A stretch of 63,629 nucleotides of DNA, filler included, from Candidatus Tectimicrobiota bacterium (lineage in GTDB: Bacteria > JACPSX01), in the NCBI GenBank assembly GCA_016193065.1. It is 7 parts of 7 records of this genome, joined end to end, with 100 filler letters (N's around TTAATTAATTAA, not from the genome) between each part and the next. Parts side by side here need not be neighbours in the genome. Positions count along the whole stretch, not along the records: positions 1 to 16,034 come from JACPSX010000164.1; 6 more parts are not named here. One strand, given 5' to 3'. Under the pieces are notes generated by a model. It had not been told where the DNA came from and made no database searches. It saw nothing but the letters and a program-made list of their open reading frames with translations. Positions 1,149-58,628 of the stretch are shown here, piece by piece. Position 1 is the first letter of the stretch; the number at the start of each line of letters is the position of its first letter. Position numbers and translations under genes: made by a program.

Positions 1149-1411
1149 GCCTGCGGTGGCAACTCCCTCGGACTGAGACAACTGAGGAAGCTGCTCTCCT
1201 GCCCTGAGCGGAAGTGCCGGGAGCAGCGGCACCCAGAGGGTACCCGATCGGGAGCGGCCAGGGATGGGAAACCGCGCAGCCTAAACTTGCTTTAAGACAG
1301 CTAAATGCTTAACGTGGCGGTAGCGGAGGGGTCCGGGTACCCGTCCTGGGTGTGGGCGCCCCGAAAGGGTCACTGCGGGAGGCTTGAAGCGAAGGGCGGG
1401 AGGGCAGCTTC
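1149..1411 (+). repeat. Structured intergenic element copy 1 (candidate ncRNA or MITE)
   Basis: Clear homology to 48726-49000; 19-bp closing stem 1187-1205/1393-1411 with two G-U pairs; carries micro-elements at 1230-1246 and 1334-1352. Confidence 0.8.
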
Positions 1412-7150: not shown

Positions 7151-10100
7151 ATGACCACGGCTGACTTTGTTCATCTCCACGTGCACAGCGAGTACAGTCT
7201 TCTGGACGGAGCCAACCGCCTCGATCAACTGATGGCGAAGGCCAGGGATTTCGGCATGGGCTCCATTGCGTTGACGGATCACGGCAACCTCTTCGGTGCC
7301 ATCCAGTTCTACAAGAAGGCCCGGGAGTACGGCATCCATCCCGTCCTGGGCTGCGAGGTCTACACGGCTCCGTCCAGCCGCTTTGAGCGCAACCCGGCCC
7401 AGGGCATCGGGGATTCCAGCAACCACCTGGTTCTGCTGGCGGAAAACGAGACGGGGTACAGGAATCTGATCCATCTGGTGACGGCGGGTTACCTGGAGGG
7501 GTTTTATTACCGTCCCCGGGTCGATCGGGAAATTCTGGCGGAGCATTCCGAGGGTCTGATTGTTTTCAGCGGCTGCCTGAAGGGGGAGATCCCCAGTTAC
7601 CTTTTGCAGGGCCAGACGGAGCGGGCCCGCCAGACGGCTTGCTGGTTTCGTGATGTTTTCGGTCCGGACCGCTTTTTCCTGGAGCTCCAGGATCACGGCC
7701 TGGAGGAGCAGGCCCATGTGAGCCCCATGCTGATCGACATGGCCCGCAAGCTCCAGATCCCCCTGGTGGTGACCAATGACTGTCACTACTTGAACCAGGA
7801 TGATTCCGTGGCCCACGATGTCCTGCTCTGCATACAGACGGGAAAAACCGTCAATGACCCCAAGCGGCTCAAATTTGCCACGAACCAGTTCTACGTGAAA
7901 TCTCCCCGGGAGATGGAGGAGCTCTTCGACGGGGTTCCCGAGGCTCTGAGCGTCACCCGGGAGATTGCCGAGCGTTGCCATCTCGATTTCCCCTTCGGCC
8001 AGATTCATCTCCCCCGCTACGAGACCCCGCCCGGAACGAACCTGGACGGCTACCTGGAGACTCTGGCCCGCAAGGGTCTGGAGGAGCGCCTGCGGCAGGC
8101 CGGCCTGTGGGGCGGCGAAGAAGCAGGCCGCTACCGGGAGCGCCTGGACGAGGAACTGCAGATCATCAACCGCATGGGGTACGCCGGTTACTTCCTGGTG
8201 GTCTGGGACTTCATCGACTACGCCCGCCGCCAGGGGATCCCCGTGGGTCCGGGCCGGGGTTCCGCGGCGGGGAGTCTGGTGGCCTACTCGCTACGGATCA
8301 CGGACCTGGACCCGATCCGCTACGGCCTCCTCTTCGAGCGCTTTCTGAACCCGGAGCGGATCAGCATGCCGGACATCGACATCGACTTTTGCATGGAGCG
8401 CCGGGACGAGGTGATCGACTACGTGGTGCGCAAGTACGGGCGGGAAAATGTGGCCCAGATCATCACCTTCGGAACCATGATGGCCAAGGCCGCGGTCCGG
8501 GACGTGGGCAGGGCCATGGACATGCCCTATGGGGAAGTGGACCGGATCGCCAAGCTGATTCCCAACCGTCTGAACATCACTCTTAGCGAGGCCATTCAGG
8601 ACGAAAGCCGGCTGGCCGAGTTGCAGGCCGCGGACCCCAAGGTCGATTTCCTGCTGAAGACGGCGCAGAAAATCGAGGGTCTGACCCGGCATGCCTCGAC
8701 CCATGCGGCCGGGGTGGTGATCTCCCCGCGGCCTCTCGCCGAGTTCGTGCCCCTGTACCGGGGCTCCAAAAACGAAATTCTCACCCAGTACGCCATGGGG
8801 GACATCGAGAGCCTGGGGTTGCTGAAGATGGATTTCCTGGGTTTGAGGACGCTCACGGTGATCCGCCATACGCTGGTTCTGGTCCGCGAGACTTCCGGGG
8901 TCGACCTGACGCCCGAGGAGCTTGCGCTGGACGATCCGGACACTTACGCCCTCCTGGGAGAAGCGCGCACGCTGGGGGTCTTTCAACTGGAGGGAAGCGG
9001 CCTCAGGGAAATCTTGCGAAAGCTGAAGCCGGAAGTCTTCGAGGACCTGATCGCCCTGGTGGCCCTCTACCGTCCGGGGCCTCTGGGCAGCGGGATGGTC
9101 GAGGACTTCATCCGGCGCAAGCACAAGCAGGTGCCGATCCACTACGATCACCCGCTGCTGGAAGAGATCCTGAAGGAGACCTACGGGGTCATCCTGTATC
9201 AGGAACAGGTCATGCAGATCGCCAGTGTCCTGGCCGGTTTTTCCCTCGGAGAGGCGGATCTCCTGCGCCGGGCCATGGGGAAAAAGCAGCCGGAGATCAT
9301 GGCCCAGCAGCGCCAGAAATTCCAGGAAGGGGCGCGCAGCCGGGGAATACCGGAAGGGGTGGCGATCAAGATTTTTGACCAGATGGAATACTTTGCCGGC
9401 TACGGGTTCAATAAATCCCACAGCGCCGCTTACGCCCTGGTGGCGTACTGGACCGCCTACCTGAAAGCCCACTTTTCCCGGGAGTTCATGGCGGCCCTGC
9501 TGACCAGCGACATGGACAACACGGACAAAGTCATCAAGTACCTGGATGGATGCCGGGAAATGGGGATTCCGGTTTCTCCCCCCGACGTGAACGAGAGCAG
9601 CAAGGATTTCTCCGTGGCCGGCAACTCACTGCGGTTCGGGCTGGCGGCGGTCAAGAATGTCGGGGTGGCGGCCGTGGAGAACATCCTGGCCGTGCGGCAG
9701 CGCAGCGGCCCATTTCCTTCCCTGGAAGCTTTCTGCCAGAGCATTGACCTGCGGGCGGTGAACCGGCGGGTGATAGAGAGCCTGATCAAGGGCGGGGCCT
9801 TTGATGGCTGGGGGATCTCGCGCGCCGCGCTCATGGCGGATCTGGACAAGACCATCGAAGTGGGGCACCGATCCCAGAAAGACAGAGAGACGGGACAAAC
9901 CAGCCTCTTCTCCCTGGTGAATCAGGTTCCGGAGCGAAAGCCCCGCACCAAACCGGTTCCCGAATGGCCGGAGAGCCTGCGGCTGCAGTACGAGAAGGAA
10001 GCCCTGGGCTTCTACATCACCGGCCACCCCCTGGCTCGATACGCCCAGCTCCTGAAGGCCTTTACCAACTCCACCACGCAGACCCTGGCGGAGAAGAACG

Positions 10101-16034: not shown

Positions 16035-16134
16035 NNNNNNNNNNNNNNNNNNNNNNNNNNNNNNNNNNNNNNNNNNNNTTAATTAATTAANNNNNNNNNN
16101 NNNNNNNNNNNNNNNNNNNNNNNNNNNNNNNNNN
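16035..16134. other. Artificial contig linker
   Basis: N run + TTAATTAATTAA + N run. Confidence 0.99.
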
Positions 16135-20557: not shown

Positions 20558-20657
20558 NNNNNNNNNNNNNNNNNNNNNNNNNNNNNNNNNNNNNNNNNNN
20601 NTTAATTAATTAANNNNNNNNNNNNNNNNNNNNNNNNNNNNNNNNNNNNNNNNNNNN
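20558..20657. other. Artificial contig linker
   Basis: N run + TTAATTAATTAA + N run. Confidence 0.99.
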
Positions 20658-28049: not shown

Positions 28050-28149
28050 NNNNNNNNNNNNNNNNNNNNNNNNNNNNNNNNNNNNNNNNNNNNTTAATTA
28101 ATTAANNNNNNNNNNNNNNNNNNNNNNNNNNNNNNNNNNNNNNNNNNNN
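28050..28149. other. Artificial contig linker
   Basis: N run + TTAATTAATTAA + N run. Confidence 0.99.
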
Positions 28150-33161: not shown

Positions 33162-33238
<77 letters not shown>

Positions 33239-36593: not shown

Positions 36594-36693
36594 NNNNNNN
36601 NNNNNNNNNNNNNNNNNNNNNNNNNNNNNNNNNNNNNTTAATTAATTAANNNNNNNNNNNNNNNNNNNNNNNNNNNNNNNNNNNNNNNNNNNN
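36594..36693. other. Artificial contig linker
   Basis: N run + TTAATTAATTAA + N run. Confidence 0.99.
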
Positions 36694-41131: not shown

Positions 41132-41231
41132 NNNNNNNNNNNNNNNNNNNNNNNNNNNNNNNNNNNNNNNNNNNNTTAATTAATTAANNNNNNNNNNNNN
41201 NNNNNNNNNNNNNNNNNNNNNNNNNNNNNNN
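41132..41231. other. Artificial contig linker
   Basis: N run + TTAATTAATTAA + N run. Confidence 0.99.
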
Positions 41232-46446: not shown

Positions 46447-48420
46447 CTATAAACTCACCACGAGGTTGCCGTACTCGTCCACACAGGCCGAGAACCCGGG
46501 CGGGAGAAAAGTCGTGGCGCTAAACTCCACCACCAGAGCAGGACCCGAGATCTCATGGCCCCATCTGAGTTTGTCCCGATCGAAGACCGCAGCCATAAAT
46601 CGCTCCCCGCCGTAAACCAGATCCTGGCTGCAGGCGAGGGCCGAAGAGGAATCCGTTTCGCACCGTTCTCCCTTTGGCCAAACGGGCCTCGGAACCGTTC
46701 CAGAGGCCCTCACCCTCAGGTTCACCACCTCCACCGGACGCCGGGGATCCGAGTGCCCGTACGCCTGCCGGTGGGCCTGGTGGAAGTCGGCAAGGACTGT
46801 CGGGCCAAAGGGCAGCATCAGCTCATAGGACTGCCCGGCATAGCGCAGATCCACAAAACATTCAAGGAGCCTGTTCTCAAAGGGGATTTCCTCCTCTGCC
46901 AGCTCCCGGTCCCCTTTTTCCAACAAGGGAGAAAACAGGCCGCCAATTTCCTCCAGGTCCCCCTCGCTTAGGGGCCTTAGAACCGAGAGCGAAGTGTCCC
47001 GGACCACGTCCGCCATGAGCATGCCCAGTGCAGAGAGAACTCCCGGGTACTTGGGGATCAAAACCCGCGGAATCGCCAGAAACCGGGCCAGCTCGCAGGC
47101 GTGCAGGCCCCCCGCTCCTCCAAAGCTCACCAGGGTAAACTCCTTGGGATCGTGCCCTTTCTCCACCGACCCGACCCGTATGGCACGCTCCATGGTGGCA
47201 TTGGCGACCGCCAGGACCCCCTCGGCTGCCTGTAAAGGGGTCATGTGCAGCGCCTGAGCCAGCTCTTCAAATGGGGCTTCGAGGCGGGCCGGATACAAGG
47301 GGAACTGTCCGCCCAGCAAAGAATGACGAAACAGCCGGCCCAACAGGAGATGGGCATCGGTCACCGTAAGACGGCAGCCGCGGCCATAACACACCGGCCC
47401 TGGATCAGCGCCTGCGCTTTCCGGCCCCACCGCCAGGCCGCCTGCCCGATCGACCCGCGCGATGGATCCACCTCCGGCCCCGACGCTGTGGATGGCGAGC
47501 ATTGGCATGCGGACCGGATATCCGGCGATTTCCGCCTCGCTCGTGAAGGGAGCCTTTCCGGGACACAGTGAGACATCCGTGGAGGTGCCCCCCATATCAA
47601 AGGAAATGATCCGGTCAAATCCGGCCCTCCGGGCCACGGCCAGGGCTCCCACTACCCCGCCCGCCGGTCCCGAAAGCAGAGTATGAACTGGAGCTCTTTG
47701 CGCCGCCGCAAGGGACATGGAGCCCCCATTGGACTGCATGACCCGCAGACGACCGGGGGCGATCCCGTCCTCCAGGCGATCCAGGTAGCGGGCCATGACC
47801 GGCATCACGTATGCGTTCATGACCGTGGTCGAGCAACGCTCGTACTCCCGGTATTCGGGGACGACCTCGCTGGACGGGGAGCACGGGAAGCCTGCACCCC
47901 TCAGGAGTACAGCCACCCGGTTCTCATGCTCCGGGCGAAGGAAGGAAAAGAGCAAGCAGATCGCCACCGATTCCACCCCCTGCCGCCGCAGTTCTTCCAC
48001 CAGATTCTGGACCTCCCGCGGATCCAACGGGGACAGAATTTCTCCCCGGGCCGAGACCCGTTCCCGGACCCCGAACCGGCGGCTGGCGGGCACCAAAACA
48101 GGACGCCGTTCCACGGAAAAGTTGTAGATTTCGCGCCGGATCTGGCGGCCAATCTCAAGCACGTCCTCGAAGCCGGCCGTCGTGATCAGTGCCGTACGTG
48201 CCCCTTTTCCTTCCAGCACTGCATTGGTGGCCACCGTAGAACCATGGACCCCGGACCAGGGAAGTTCTCCAACACATTTCCGGATCCCCTGCCCAATTGC
48301 CTCCTCGGGAGCCGACGGAGTCGAGGGAACTTTATGGATCCTCACGCTCCCGTCCGGGGCCAGGAAGACAAAGTCCGTAAAGGTCCCTCCCGTGTCAATC
48401 CCCGCCAGCAATCGTTCCAT
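46447..48420 (-). CDS. Hydantoinase A / 5-oxoprolinase family subunit
   Basis: DTGGTFTD, HGSTVATNA, SGPAGG, DMGGTSTD, GAGGGSIA. Confidence 0.93.
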   Translation of the reverse strand: MERLLAGIDTGGTFTDFVFLAPDGSVRIHKVPSTPSAPEEAIGQGIRKCVGELPWSGVHGSTVATNAVLEGKGARTALITTAGFEDVLEIGRQIRREIYNFSVERRPVLVPASRRFGVRERVSARGEILSPLDPREVQNLVEELRRQGVESVAICLLFSFLRPEHENRVAVLLRGAGFPCSPSSEVVPEYREYERCSTTVMNAYVMPVMARYLDRLEDGIAPGRLRVMQSNGGSMSLAAAQRAPVHTLLSGPAGGVVGALAVARRAGFDRIISFDMGGTSTDVSLCPGKAPFTSEAEIAGYPVRMPMLAIHSVGAGGGSIARVDRAGGLAVGPESAGADPGPVCYGRGCRLTVTDAHLLLGRLFRHSLLGGQFPLYPARLEAPFEELAQALHMTPLQAAEGVLAVANATMERAIRVGSVEKGHDPKEFTLVSFGGAGGLHACELARFLAIPRVLIPKYPGVLSALGMLMADVVRDTSLSVLRPLSEGDLEEIGGLFSPLLEKGDRELAEEEIPFENRLLECFVDLRYAGQSYELMLPFGPTVLADFHQAHRQAYGHSDPRRPVEVVNLRVRASGTVPRPVWPKGERCETDSSSALACSQDLVYGGERFMAAVFDRDKLRWGHEISGPALVVEFSATTFLPPGFSACVDEYGNLVVSL

Positions 48421-48497
48421 TGCGCTCTCCTGCTTGACCGAATCCTCGCACGGTATCTTAGGATCTGACCGCGCAAAGTCAAGCCGGGCTTAAAAGA

Positions 48498-48580
48498 GCG
48501 TTCAGTAATCAGCTACCAGCTGTCAGCCCGGGAAATTCAAGGCCTCCCAACCTCCTCCGGGTGTCAAGCTGATAGCTGAG
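48498..48580. repeat. Heptamer (TCAGCNN / GCTGANN) short tandem repeats
   Basis: TTCAGTAATCAGCTACCAGCTGTCAGC...GCTGATAGCTGA; similar tracts at about 49033-49060 and 58420-58450. Confidence 0.65.
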
Positions 48581-48725
48581 TCCGCCCACCCCCAGTTTGC
48601 CTAAGAATGAAGAATTGCTACCCCCATGAACTCCTCGGGGTGCCCCCTTGGGCTCACGAAGCGCTTGCGATGAGACATTTGCCGGCTGAATCGAGAGAGG
48701 TGTTCGCCTCGCAACCGCTTAGATC

Positions 48726-49000
48726 GCCTGCGGGGGCAACCCCTCGGAGGAGAGAGCACCAAGGGGACTGTCCTTCCTGCCCTGAGCGCAACTGCCGGGA
48801 GCAGCGCAACACCCGCAAAGCGGGTACCCGCACCGGGAGCGGCCAGGGATGGGAAACCGCGCAGCTAGACTTGCTGGCAGATAGCTGAAAACTTATCGTG
48901 GCGGTAGCGGAGGGCTCCGGGTACCCGTCCTGGGTGTGGGCGCCCCGAGAAGGGTCGCTGCGGGAGGCGTGGAGCGAAGGGCAGGAAAACAGTCCCTTTG
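48726..49000 (+). repeat. Structured intergenic element copy 2 (candidate ncRNA or MITE)
   Basis: Homologous to 1149-1411; closing stem 48760-48783/48978-49000; micro-elements at 48810-48830 and 48918-48936. Confidence 0.8.
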
Positions 49001-49082
49001 CTATGGATTCGCCAAAACTGGGGGTGGGCAAGGATAGCTGACCGCTGAAAGCTGAATGCTCTCTTCAATGACCGCTCTCCTC

Positions 49083-49111
49083 TTGACAGAACTAATGGTT
49101 CCCGTTATCGT
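49083..49111 (+). promoter_or_regulatory. Candidate sigma70 promoter for ispH
   Basis: TTGACA-17 nt-TATCGT. Confidence 0.55.
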
Positions 49112-49159
49112 AGAGAAGATTGATCGATGATTTCCATCCGTGAGAGGGGGAAACTCCTG

Positions 49160-50902
49160 GTGAAAAAGGTCATCGCAAAGGAAGGGGCCGGTTACTGCAT
49201 GGGGGTGCGCAGGGCGATGAACATCGTCCTGGACGCCGCCAACAAAGAAGAGAAATCCGTCACGACCTTTGGACCCATCATCCATAACCCCCAGGCCGTA
49301 GAGATCCTTAATTCCAAAGACGTAAGAGTTGTCAACCAGGTCTCCGAGCTCAAGTCAAACGGCACCGTCATTGTCCGGGCCCATGGAATTGGCCCCGACG
49401 TGCGCCAGGAGCTCAAATCCACAGGGCTTACCATTCGCGATGCCACCTGCCCCCTGGTCAGCAAGGTTCACTCCTCCATCCGGCGCTACCTGAAGCGCGG
49501 GCACCACCTGATCATTGTCGGAGAGGAAAAGCACCCCGAGGTGATTGGGCACCTCGGCTTTGCCCGCGGGCAGGGGAGCGTGATCAGCAGAATCGAAGAC
49601 GTCGAGAAGCTGCCTGATTTCAAAAAGGTCTGCGTCGTTTCCCAAACCACCTTTGACGAGGAGTACTTCCTGCAAATTGCAGACGCCCTAAGAAAACGTT
49701 ATCCGGTCTGCGAGGTGGTCAACACAATATGCTTCGAGACCTTGAACCGCCAGAGGGAGGTCCGGGAGATGGCCCAGAAGGTCGATGCCATGGTGGTCAT
49801 CGGCGGCAAAAACAGCGGCAATACCCGGCGCCTGGCTCAGATTTCCGAGTCTTACGGAATCCCTGCTTTCTTCGTCGAGACCGAGAAAGAGATCAACCTG
49901 GACGAGCTCGAAAAGTTTGAGAGTGTCGGCATCACAGCCGGCGCATCGACACCCAACTGGCTTATCCAGAAAGTCATTGATCACATCGATGCCCTCGAGC
50001 ACCGTCACGAGCCTCTCTGGATGCAGGGGCTGAGGCGAATGACGACCACCCTCTTCCGTCTCAGCTTCTTCGTCGCTCTGGGCGCCGCCCTTCTTACCCA
50101 CGGAGCCGCATTGCTCCAGGGGATCCAACCCAAGCCCGTCTACCCCCTCATAGCCATCCTCTACACACTTTCCATGTTCATCTTAAACCGCTGCCTGGAT
50201 AAGGAGGCGGATAAATTCAACGAGCCCGGCCGCACAGAGTTTTACGAGCGGCACGGGCGGTCCCTGCTGGGAGCCGGCCTGGCCGCCGGCATCACTGCCC
50301 TGGCTCTGGCTTTCCCTCTAGGACCCCTTCCCTTTCTGTGTCTGCTGATCTTTAGCCTGGCGGGGGTTCTCTACAGTGTAAGGCTCATTCCGCCGCGCTG
50401 GCAGGATGTGCTTCACATACGGCGGCCCAAGGATATACCGGCTTCGAAGAGCTTTTTCATTCCGATCGCCTGCGCCGTGGTGATGGTCTTTATCCCCTAT
50501 CTGAGTTCGGATTCCGGAGCACTGCCGGCAACCCTGGCCACGAGTCTTTTCGTCTTCACGGTTGTTTTCCTGCGCACGGCTCTGCTGGACATGAGCGACA
50601 TCGAGCGGGACCGGATCGCAGGCAGCGAAATCCTGACCATGCTCATCGAAAAGCCGGCGACCCTCAGGCTGCTCTGGGGCATGCTCGGGTTCATGGCTGC
50701 CGTCGTCACGGGGCTCGCCCTGGCCGGTTGGTTATCCCTTCTCGCAGTTGCCATGCTGGCGGCTCTGGGATATTCCGCTTTGAGCCTCTACCTTTACCAG
50801 CGCAAGGTGGTTTTCAACGGCCTCACATTTCTCCTCATAGTGGACGGCAACCTGATCGTAGCAGGTCTTCTGGCCTATCTAGGGTCCCTATTGCTGGCCT
50901 AA
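49160..50902 (+). CDS. ispH: IspH (HMBPP reductase) fused to a UbiA-like membrane domain
   Basis: AGYCMGVRRA, IIHNP, DATCP, NTIC..T..RQ, SGNT, TAGASTP; C-terminal TM bundle with N..LD..AD..N and DMSDIERD motifs. Confidence 0.92.
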   Translation: MKKVIAKEGAGYCMGVRRAMNIVLDAANKEEKSVTTFGPIIHNPQAVEILNSKDVRVVNQVSELKSNGTVIVRAHGIGPDVRQELKSTGLTIRDATCPLVSKVHSSIRRYLKRGHHLIIVGEEKHPEVIGHLGFARGQGSVISRIEDVEKLPDFKKVCVVSQTTFDEEYFLQIADALRKRYPVCEVVNTICFETLNRQREVREMAQKVDAMVVIGGKNSGNTRRLAQISESYGIPAFFVETEKEINLDELEKFESVGITAGASTPNWLIQKVIDHIDALEHRHEPLWMQGLRRMTTTLFRLSFFVALGAALLTHGAALLQGIQPKPVYPLIAILYTLSMFILNRCLDKEADKFNEPGRTEFYERHGRSLLGAGLAAGITALALAFPLGPLPFLCLLIFSLAGVLYSVRLIPPRWQDVLHIRRPKDIPASKSFFIPIACAVVMVFIPYLSSDSGALPATLATSLFVFTVVFLRTALLDMSDIERDRIAGSEILTMLIEKPATLRLLWGMLGFMAAVVTGLALAGWLSLLAVAMLAALGYSALSLYLYQRKVVFNGLTFLLIVDGNLIVAGLLAYLGSLLLA

Positions 50903-51025
50903 GAGCTAAAATAGCCTTCAGCTGAACGCTTTCCAGCTTCAGGCTTGATGCCAGCCCGCGCAGGCGTATAATCGTATAATAAGCTCTAACGCTCCCCGTC
51001 CATTACCCCGAAGCGGAGGAATCCA

Positions 51026-58528: not shown

Positions 58529-58628
58529 NNNNNNNNNNNNNNNNNNNNNNNNNNNNNNNNNNNNNNNNNNNNTTAATTAATTAANNNNNNNNNNNNNNNN
58601 NNNNNNNNNNNNNNNNNNNNNNNNNNNN
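58529..58628. other. Artificial contig linker
   Basis: N run + TTAATTAATTAA + N run. Confidence 0.99.

Follow-up and report, generated by a model that had tools for sequence, protein, structure and literature searches.

A hairpin-forming repeat in a Candidatus Tectimicrobiota genome, very probably the interior of an IS4-like MITE, and the -35 hexamers beside its ends

Related elements and the make-up of the two copies

Correia/NEMIS, ERIC, RUP, CIR and YPAL are described as non-coding, multi-copy and mostly intergenic sequences with terminal inverted repeats (TIRs) and target duplications; transcripts of bacterial MITEs are predicted to form long stem-loops, and the arms of CIR carry conserved exposed motifs (Delihas 2008, PMC2229807). 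MITEs are defined by a length of 50 to 800 bp, a TIR of at least 10 to 15 bp and a target-site duplication of 2 to 10 bp, with about 90% of them lying in intergenic DNA (PMC11602168). For the IS4 family, the hallmarks given are a single open reading frame (ORF) for a DDE transposase with the signature Y(2)R(3)E(6)K and duplications of roughly one helical turn (about 10 bp); some members show strong target-arm specificity, and the word 'promoter' is absent from that paper (De Palmenaer et al. 2008, PMC2266710). A constant spacing between the insertion point and a host sequence that occurs repeatedly has been described for the IS1202 group, which lies beside dif/pdif, and for insertion sequences that target REP sequences (PMC10132070, PMC1525189).

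The repeat analysed here, called Y, is a unit of about 265 nt, and the MITE that bears it is like Correia/NEMIS, ERIC, RUP, CIR and YPAL in being non-coding, multi-copy and intergenic, with TIRs, duplications and a predicted stem-loop. Compared with described bacterial MITEs, which measure about 100 to 200 bp in the accounts cited, the Y-bearing MITE is much longer and G+C-rich, has no TA ends and is flanked by a 10-bp duplication. Its fold is an internal rod and not an end-to-end pairing, and its ends keep a fixed spacing of 13 nt to a -35 hexamer, which those descriptions do not mention.

The window, that is, the whole stretch of 63,629 nucleotides under analysis, consists of several contigs of one MAG (G000; 2.9 Mb, 294 contigs, 86% complete). 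Runs of N at 16035-16134, 20558-20657, 28050-28149, 36594-36693, 41132-41231 and 58529-58628 mark the joins of separate contigs, so that gene order and distance across them have no meaning. In the species-representative set, the phylum comprises G000 and its sister species G001 only, the latter being a fragmented MAG that is 91% complete. Eight public runs matched the locus, all of them DNA runs from groundwater.

The initial annotation had described Y as a two-copy structured element, a candidate new ncRNA or MITE, at 1149-1411 (copy A, contig C118) and 48726-49000 (copy B, contig C123). The long blocks that it had reported as shared were recovered, since the two stretches align with a mean column identity of 84% and contain identical blocks, but two copies proved to be far too few. 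A BLAST search of G000 with copy A gave 43 matches, and iterated nhmmer at E<=1e-5 gave 36 Y matches in G000, 22 of which were near full length (from model position 6 or lower to 248 or higher) and 71 to 85% identical to copy A. At least nine Y matches touch a contig end, as expected because assemblers break on repeats. Over 48614-49066, the summed depth of DNA contigs from two runs climbs from about 30 to about 3200, which fits a repeat and gives no copy count.

Copy B is a complete element of 452 bp at 48581-49032 (7350-7801 of its contig), of which 48726-49000 is only the interior; the limits first drawn were thus too narrow. On the + strand, a left TIR with its first four nucleotides degenerate (48581-48597) is followed by a left arm (48598-48719) with conserved blocks and a short 5' hairpin module, and then by the Y body (48720-48993; nhmmer model positions 1-255, E 4e-68). 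The right TIR lies on the - strand at 49016-49032, as found by the terminal-repeat scan and by reading the sequence. The element is flanked by a target-site duplication, GATAGCTGAG on the left (48571-48580) and GATAGCTGAC on the right (49033-49042), which agree at 9/10 positions. The left arm also occurs without a Y body, in G000 as well as in G001.

Copy A is a rearranged, older member of the MITE that has lost its left end. Its Y body (1144-1408, + strand; nhmmer model positions 2-255, E 1.2e-71) comprises a short 5' hairpin module and then, at about 1186-1411, a rod with a long closing stem. No left TIR was found upstream; the stretch is preceded by two modules outside the limits of the initial annotation, namely, a dispersed repeat, module X (984-1100, + strand), and a 31-nt repeat, module K (1101-1131, + strand). 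A degenerate remnant of the right TIR was read from the sequence at the usual place of the right end (1429-1449, + strand) and went undetected in the terminal-repeat scan, which allowed up to 4 mismatches. The only ORF of at least 50 aa confined to the repeat region of copy A encodes 50 aa (1143-1295). Over the positions of module X there are about 18 to 22 other genome matches; 10 matches in blastn-short cover at least half of the module, the first 45 nt or so of which also occur in the orthologous spacer of G001. Module K gave 30 genome matches in both orientations, with or without a Y body following. The occurrences of modules X (117 nt) and K (31 nt) number about 10 to 30 in the genome, and K often stands with the same left arm in places where Y is absent.

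Both copies lie between divergently transcribed genes, as the initial annotation had named them: MazG (-) and DUF1844 (+) for copy A, and Hydantoinase_A (-) and a LytB/IspH protein fused to UbiA (+) for copy B. The latter gene, downstream of copy B, occupies 49127-50902 on the + strand and encodes 591 aa with a LytB/IspH domain and a UbiA prenyltransferase domain.

Across the genome, Y is the internal domain of a MITE of 400 to 465 bp. The TIR measures 17 to 18 nt and reads CTTGCCCACCCCCAGTT at the far left, with its reverse complement at the far right of many copies. A scan of G000 for paired terminal repeats (<=4 mismatches) returned 13 inverted pairs of the 17-nt end, 132 to 822 bp apart, with element sizes of 237 to 464 bp. 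Seven of the 13 pairs were flanked by a direct repeat of 10 to 11 bp with at most one mismatch (10/10 on C14 and C153; 9/10 on C61, C123, C246 and C260; 10/11 on C201), while the other six had no clear duplication, one showing 7/10 and five none. About 53 ends in G000 were classified by their inner sequence. In eight full elements, the mean pairwise identity of conserved blocks was 0.84 to 0.91 in the left arm versus 0.84 to 0.96 in Y; conserved blocks are therefore not special to Y.

Y copies are intergenic, the indels between them do not come in threes, and they decay through truncation and internal deletion; short elements without Y are internally deleted versions of the Y-bearing ones. Y is, moreover, embedded in a mosaic of repeats, in which the 5' hairpin module also occurs without Y and two alternative arms are found upstream, and the intergenic DNA of G000 as a whole is a mosaic of recombining repeat modules. 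Small G+C-rich hairpins around GGGTACCC are seen at 1226-1247 and 48805-48831 of the window, at insertion positions that vary among Y copies. In some elements (C117, C190, C35 and C108 of G000, and C46 of G001) they also stand in inverted form some 70 nt before the left arm begins, and their behaviour is that of a tiny mobile or recombining module in its own right.

Outside G000, Y is scarce. G001 contains many copies of the left-arm modules and a single truncated Y, and 39 more distant genomes gave no Y match. The exact pattern of the Y core had no match in the species-representative genomes, and in metagenomes it was found on three contigs, all carrying the same truncated copy of the G001 type. 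BLAST of the 452-bp element against plasmid and phage collections gave no match. The initial annotation had proposed to compare presence and absence at orthologous loci: the mazG-DUF1844 spacer of G001 is without Y and shares the start of module X, but it contains other repeat DNA and so offers no clean empty site. A search of G001 for the empty site of the C153 element returned repeat matches only and no orthologous flanks, and contigs of four DNA runs over 46500-51000 contained neither an empty-site joint across 48581-49032 nor a piece spanning the stretch.

Same-end elements in other genomes

The exact 18-nt end was present in more than 117 stretches of representative genomes of other species; by our estimate, chance alone would yield about 17 matches to an 18-mer in a collection of 596 Gb. 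Among the matches listed, the genomes were labelled Thermodesulfobacteriota/'delta proteobacteria', Nitrospirota, Nitrospinota, Acidobacteriota, Actinomycetota and others, and several of them had many ends, some forming inverted pairs 170 to 330 bp apart, that is, MITEs. Two further inverted pairs with exact 18-nt ends, again among the matches listed, were 1870 and 1985 bp apart (L073/L074 and L129/L130), in records labelled Thermoanaerobaculia and Actinomycetota. Each of these elements of about 1.9 kb encloses an ORF of 114 to 122 aa, which matches DUF6788, followed by an ORF of 407 aa, and both copies are flanked by perfect 10-bp duplications. The left end at L073 lies inside a 338-aa reverse-strand ORF that resembles another, putative, transposase.

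The 407-aa proteins matched DDE_Tnp_1 (PF01609) with 42.7 and 51.9 bits (cut-off, 23), and the Y(2)R(3)E(6)K signature (YREK) was recognized in both by inspection. The best NCBIfam match was an IS4 model (118.5 bits, compared to a cut-off of 152), and the only PDB matches were to the Tn5 transposase and were weak (E 0.12). In their transposase signature and 10-bp duplications, the elements of about 1.9 kb are thus like the IS4 family (IS231, IS10 and IS50/Tn5), as far as the family is described in the source cited above; they differ from that description in carrying a second ORF, DUF6788, upstream of the transposase, and the transposase scores below the cut-off of every NCBIfam IS4 model. Because of this score and the extra ORF, we call them IS4-like and assign them to no named subgroup. 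A parallel for cargo between IS4-type ends is provided by MIC231, cassettes that derive from IS231 and lack a transposase.

Among protein clusters from metagenomes, at least 336 are related to the transposase at E<=1e-10, and those among the clusters listed come mostly from contigs of about 2 kb and bear generic names only. Searched as a single protein query, the transposase had no match in G000 or G001, both of which are fragmented MAGs. The only DDE_Tnp_1/PF01609 gene of G000 (on C242) is not flanked by the terminal repeat. The only pair of terminal repeats 900 to 6000 bp apart in G000 is on C61 and spans 4415 bp, with four ORFs by a crude call; its far end is a loose match (<=3 mismatches). 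Our searches of the literature on the end sequence and on DUF6788 found nothing relevant.

The MITEs with the same ends in other genomes differ from ours in their interiors. The nhmmer model of Y had no match in 80 same-end loci of other phyla, and all four of the same-end MITEs that were folded showed long internal stems of sequence unrelated to Y (z between -12 and -18 for the + strand and between -8 and -19 for the - strand). What the 18-nt ends do is tie the MITE of G000 to a widespread, unnamed IS4-like element whose ends are identical across genomes labelled as several phyla. Taken together, the TIRs, the 10-bp duplications, the dozens of copies, the lack of an ORF and the autonomous same-end elements elsewhere bear out the second half of the initial proposal, and Y is very probably the hairpin-forming middle of a multi-copy, IS4-like MITE that is bounded by TIRs and 10-bp duplications and has expanded in one species. 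What is new is this MITE family; the kind of element was already known.

As to how such a MITE would move, an IS4-type transposase supplied in trans may bind the terminal repeats and transfer the element by cut-and-paste.

Placement of element ends beside -35 hexamers

The surroundings of the ends were compared for 52 ends of G000 that had been classified by inner sequence and had at least 45 nt of flank. Twenty-one of them had a match of at least 5/6 to TTGACA starting 13 to 15 nt outside the end, compared to 216 of 20,000 random intergenic positions (1.1%). A tally by position placed the hexamer at nucleotides 14 to 19, three bases past the 10-bp duplication and preceded by a C-rich stretch. 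At 13 of the 21 TTGACA-adjoining ends, but only 4 of the 31 other ends, a TAnnnT followed at 16 to 18 nt, and the end faced a co-oriented gene in 19/21 cases versus 16/29 for the other ends. The promoters that adjoin element ends fire outward from the element. Left and right ends were represented about equally (11 and 10), the element being inserted in either orientation without preference. An earlier figure for co-orientation of Y with the downstream gene, 23/32 by a crude ORF count, is not relied on here, the end-based count of 11 versus 10 being cleaner.

The same spacing was found elsewhere: among the matches listed in other genomes, 31 of 84 exact-match ends, from 20 assemblies, lay 13 nt from a TTGACA, one of the two autonomous copies included. 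Where an element has perfect duplications, the hexamer stands past the duplication on one side only and is therefore part of the target and not of the element. At copy B, a TTGACA box pointing away from the element lies 13 nt outside the left end (48562-48567, - strand), with no TAnnnT found at 16 to 18 nt from it. The promoter scan found none within the element itself (48581-49032). Outside it, a sigma-70-like promoter of the downstream ispH-ubiA gene was identified at 49083-49111 on the + strand (TTGACA, 17 nt, TATCGT; 10/12 matches), and another promoter-like site at 48482-48455 on the - strand. On contig C95 of G000 (L020, 3474-3718), about 26 nt separate the end of a Y copy from a TTGACA box that is followed by a tRNA-like sequence; judging from this sequence, tRNA promoters may also be neighbours of MITE ends.

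In the constant spacing of its ends to a repeated host landmark, the MITE resembles the IS1202 group and the REP-targeting insertion sequences as their sources describe them. The landmark differs, however, being the -35 hexamer of sigma-70 promoters, and so does the transposase family. With a -35 hexamer as landmark, each genome offers hundreds of possible sites, each of them beside a gene control region. Limited searches of the literature on MITEs and -35 boxes and on the target specificity of insertion sequences yielded no description of insertion next to a -35 box. From the position of the ends in these genomes, we consider it probable that the IS4-like superfamily homes to sigma-70 promoters and integrates 13 bp upstream of the -35 hexamer. 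The choice of target might then be guided by the hexamer itself or by promoter-bound proteins. It is this promoter-adjacent placement that is the interesting part of the finding.

Fold of Y, rival readings and meaning

The fold of Y was derived with RNAalifold from 21 near-full copies, all from one genome. It is a rod of 54 pairs, in which a closing stem of about 20 bp surrounds short nested helices separated by conserved loops. The initial annotation had noted that the outer closing stem differs between the two copies and yet pairs in each, and that the G-U pairs fit the + strand. Both observations extend to the larger set, in that the stem forms in 21/21 near-full copies with energies of -28 to -46 kcal/mol (-41.8 in copy A and -38.6 in copy B) and is stabler on the + strand in 19 of them. 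The minimum free energy of copy A was -131.2 kcal/mol (z, -2.3).

A functional structured RNA that is spread by the MITE, acting as an sRNA, as a decoy or processing RNA or as an insulator against read-through, with its fold under selection in the transcript, would account for several features of the alignment. On the rod structure, 96.5% of the cells are paired, compared to 41 to 50% when the partners are slid; 17 cells show changes on both sides, a number reached in 0/500 shuffles; and the closing stem exists in several fully complementary variants. The strands are unequal too, since the alignment folds with -68.9 kcal/mol on the + strand versus -54.9 kcal/mol on the - strand, and by our own count the minority cells of mostly Watson-Crick pairs contain about 31 G-U versus 16 A-C. 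Together with the + preference of the closing stem, this asymmetry is expected of a single-stranded + molecule, and a purely double-stranded role fails to explain it. One G-U pair is invariant in 21/21 copies, and the loop blocks are invariant although the copies are only 71 to 85% identical, suggesting a constraint beyond that on the MITE ends. Only 6 of the 54 pairs change on both sides, however, a number reached in 17/500 shuffles, 20 pairs never vary, the covariation term is -0.53 kcal/mol, and such counts overstate independence because the copies, all of a single genome, group into subfamilies. The selection on single-stranded structure that the initial annotation had proposed is weakly supported, with double changes in these 6 pairs and a preference of 19/21 closing stems for the + strand, and a very similar picture would be expected if an inverted repeat were maintained in the DNA itself. 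An RNA gene also accords poorly with the surroundings of Y: none of the 22 near-full copies has an internal sigma-70-type promoter on either strand, no intrinsic terminator was found in copy B, and the adjoining promoters point outward, with no preferred orientation of the element. Copies of Y decay, moreover, and are confined to one species plus the truncated copy in its sister; the left-arm blocks outside Y match those of Y in conservation, and the hairpins of same-end MITEs from other genomes are just as strong and fold equally well whichever strand is taken. At the gathering score, Rfam 15 found only a tRNA (33165-33238) in the whole window; on 1000-1560 it gave 0 matches at E<=10, and ARAGORN found 0 genes on 900-1600. 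The absence of a match to 6S, SRP, RNase P, tmRNA or a riboswitch, which the initial annotation had stated, thus held. We regard a functional structured RNA as an unlikely reading of Y.

Two other readings tie Y to transposons of a different kind. A transposon guide RNA, whether an omega/reRNA of IS200/IS605 or a PATE derivative or else an IS110 bridge RNA, could be many-copy, structured, about 250 nt long and encode no protein, as Y is, and the genome has two Y1_Tnp matches. These Y1_Tnp genes, however, adjoin none of the modules, the TnpB-type domain PF07282 was not found in G000, the only match to Transposase_20 (PF02371) is below the cut-off, and Rfam gave no match, HEARO included. IS200/IS605 and IS110 elements are not known to make inverted terminal repeats or target duplications, and the elements described here have both, so that we hold a guide RNA to be extremely improbable. 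We consider it just as improbable that Y is a BIME-like mosaic whose REP hairpins were dispersed by a tyrosine transposase of the REP-associated kind. The mosaic make-up of the repeats, the small G+C-rich hairpins at differing places in different copies and a 215-aa Y1_Tnp ORF in the genome recall such a system, but none of these repeats borders a Y1 gene, and the units are bounded by TIRs with 10-bp duplications that match an IS4-like insertion sequence. The REP/RAYT, omega-RNA and bridge-RNA readings were accordingly rejected on their defining features, given the TIRs and duplications and the lack of a flanking Y1, TnpB or IS110 gene.

For Y as the interior of an IS4-like MITE, the rod would be the counterpart in G000 of the long inverted repeat that same-end MITEs elsewhere have in their interior. 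Since the inverted repeats of those MITEs are long and unrelated in sequence to Y, we think that the rod is probably maintained for the sake of the element itself, where it may, for instance, join the ends or bind transposase or host proteins on DNA. The covarying closing stem would then reflect upkeep of an inverted repeat and not a free-standing RNA gene, and this upkeep could come about through selection on mobility, through hairpin-templated correction or through selection on a transcript. A role of Y as RNA or as single-stranded DNA is kept in mind because of the + strand bias and the invariant loops, but it seems improbable to us. What was tempting to call a new structured RNA thus appears to be the inside of a family of transposon relics, and covarying stems between two copies can stem from a repeat.

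A wider reading joins the fold to the placement. An IS4-like superfamily found in genomes labelled as several phyla would home to promoters, and its MITEs would deliver structured cargo such as the Y rod to about position -48 of many genes, making Y a promoter-proximal module that may serve as a read-through insulator, as a protein-binding scaffold or cruciform, or as a short RNA. As a whole we find this reading unlikely, and a host-level or RNA function of Y itself is much less likely than the homing. If the fixed 13-nt placement reflects target choice, this would be a bacterial transposon that reads promoters, and such behaviour, if true, would bear on how mobile DNA spares its host and rewires gene control and might offer a tool for promoter-proximal integration.
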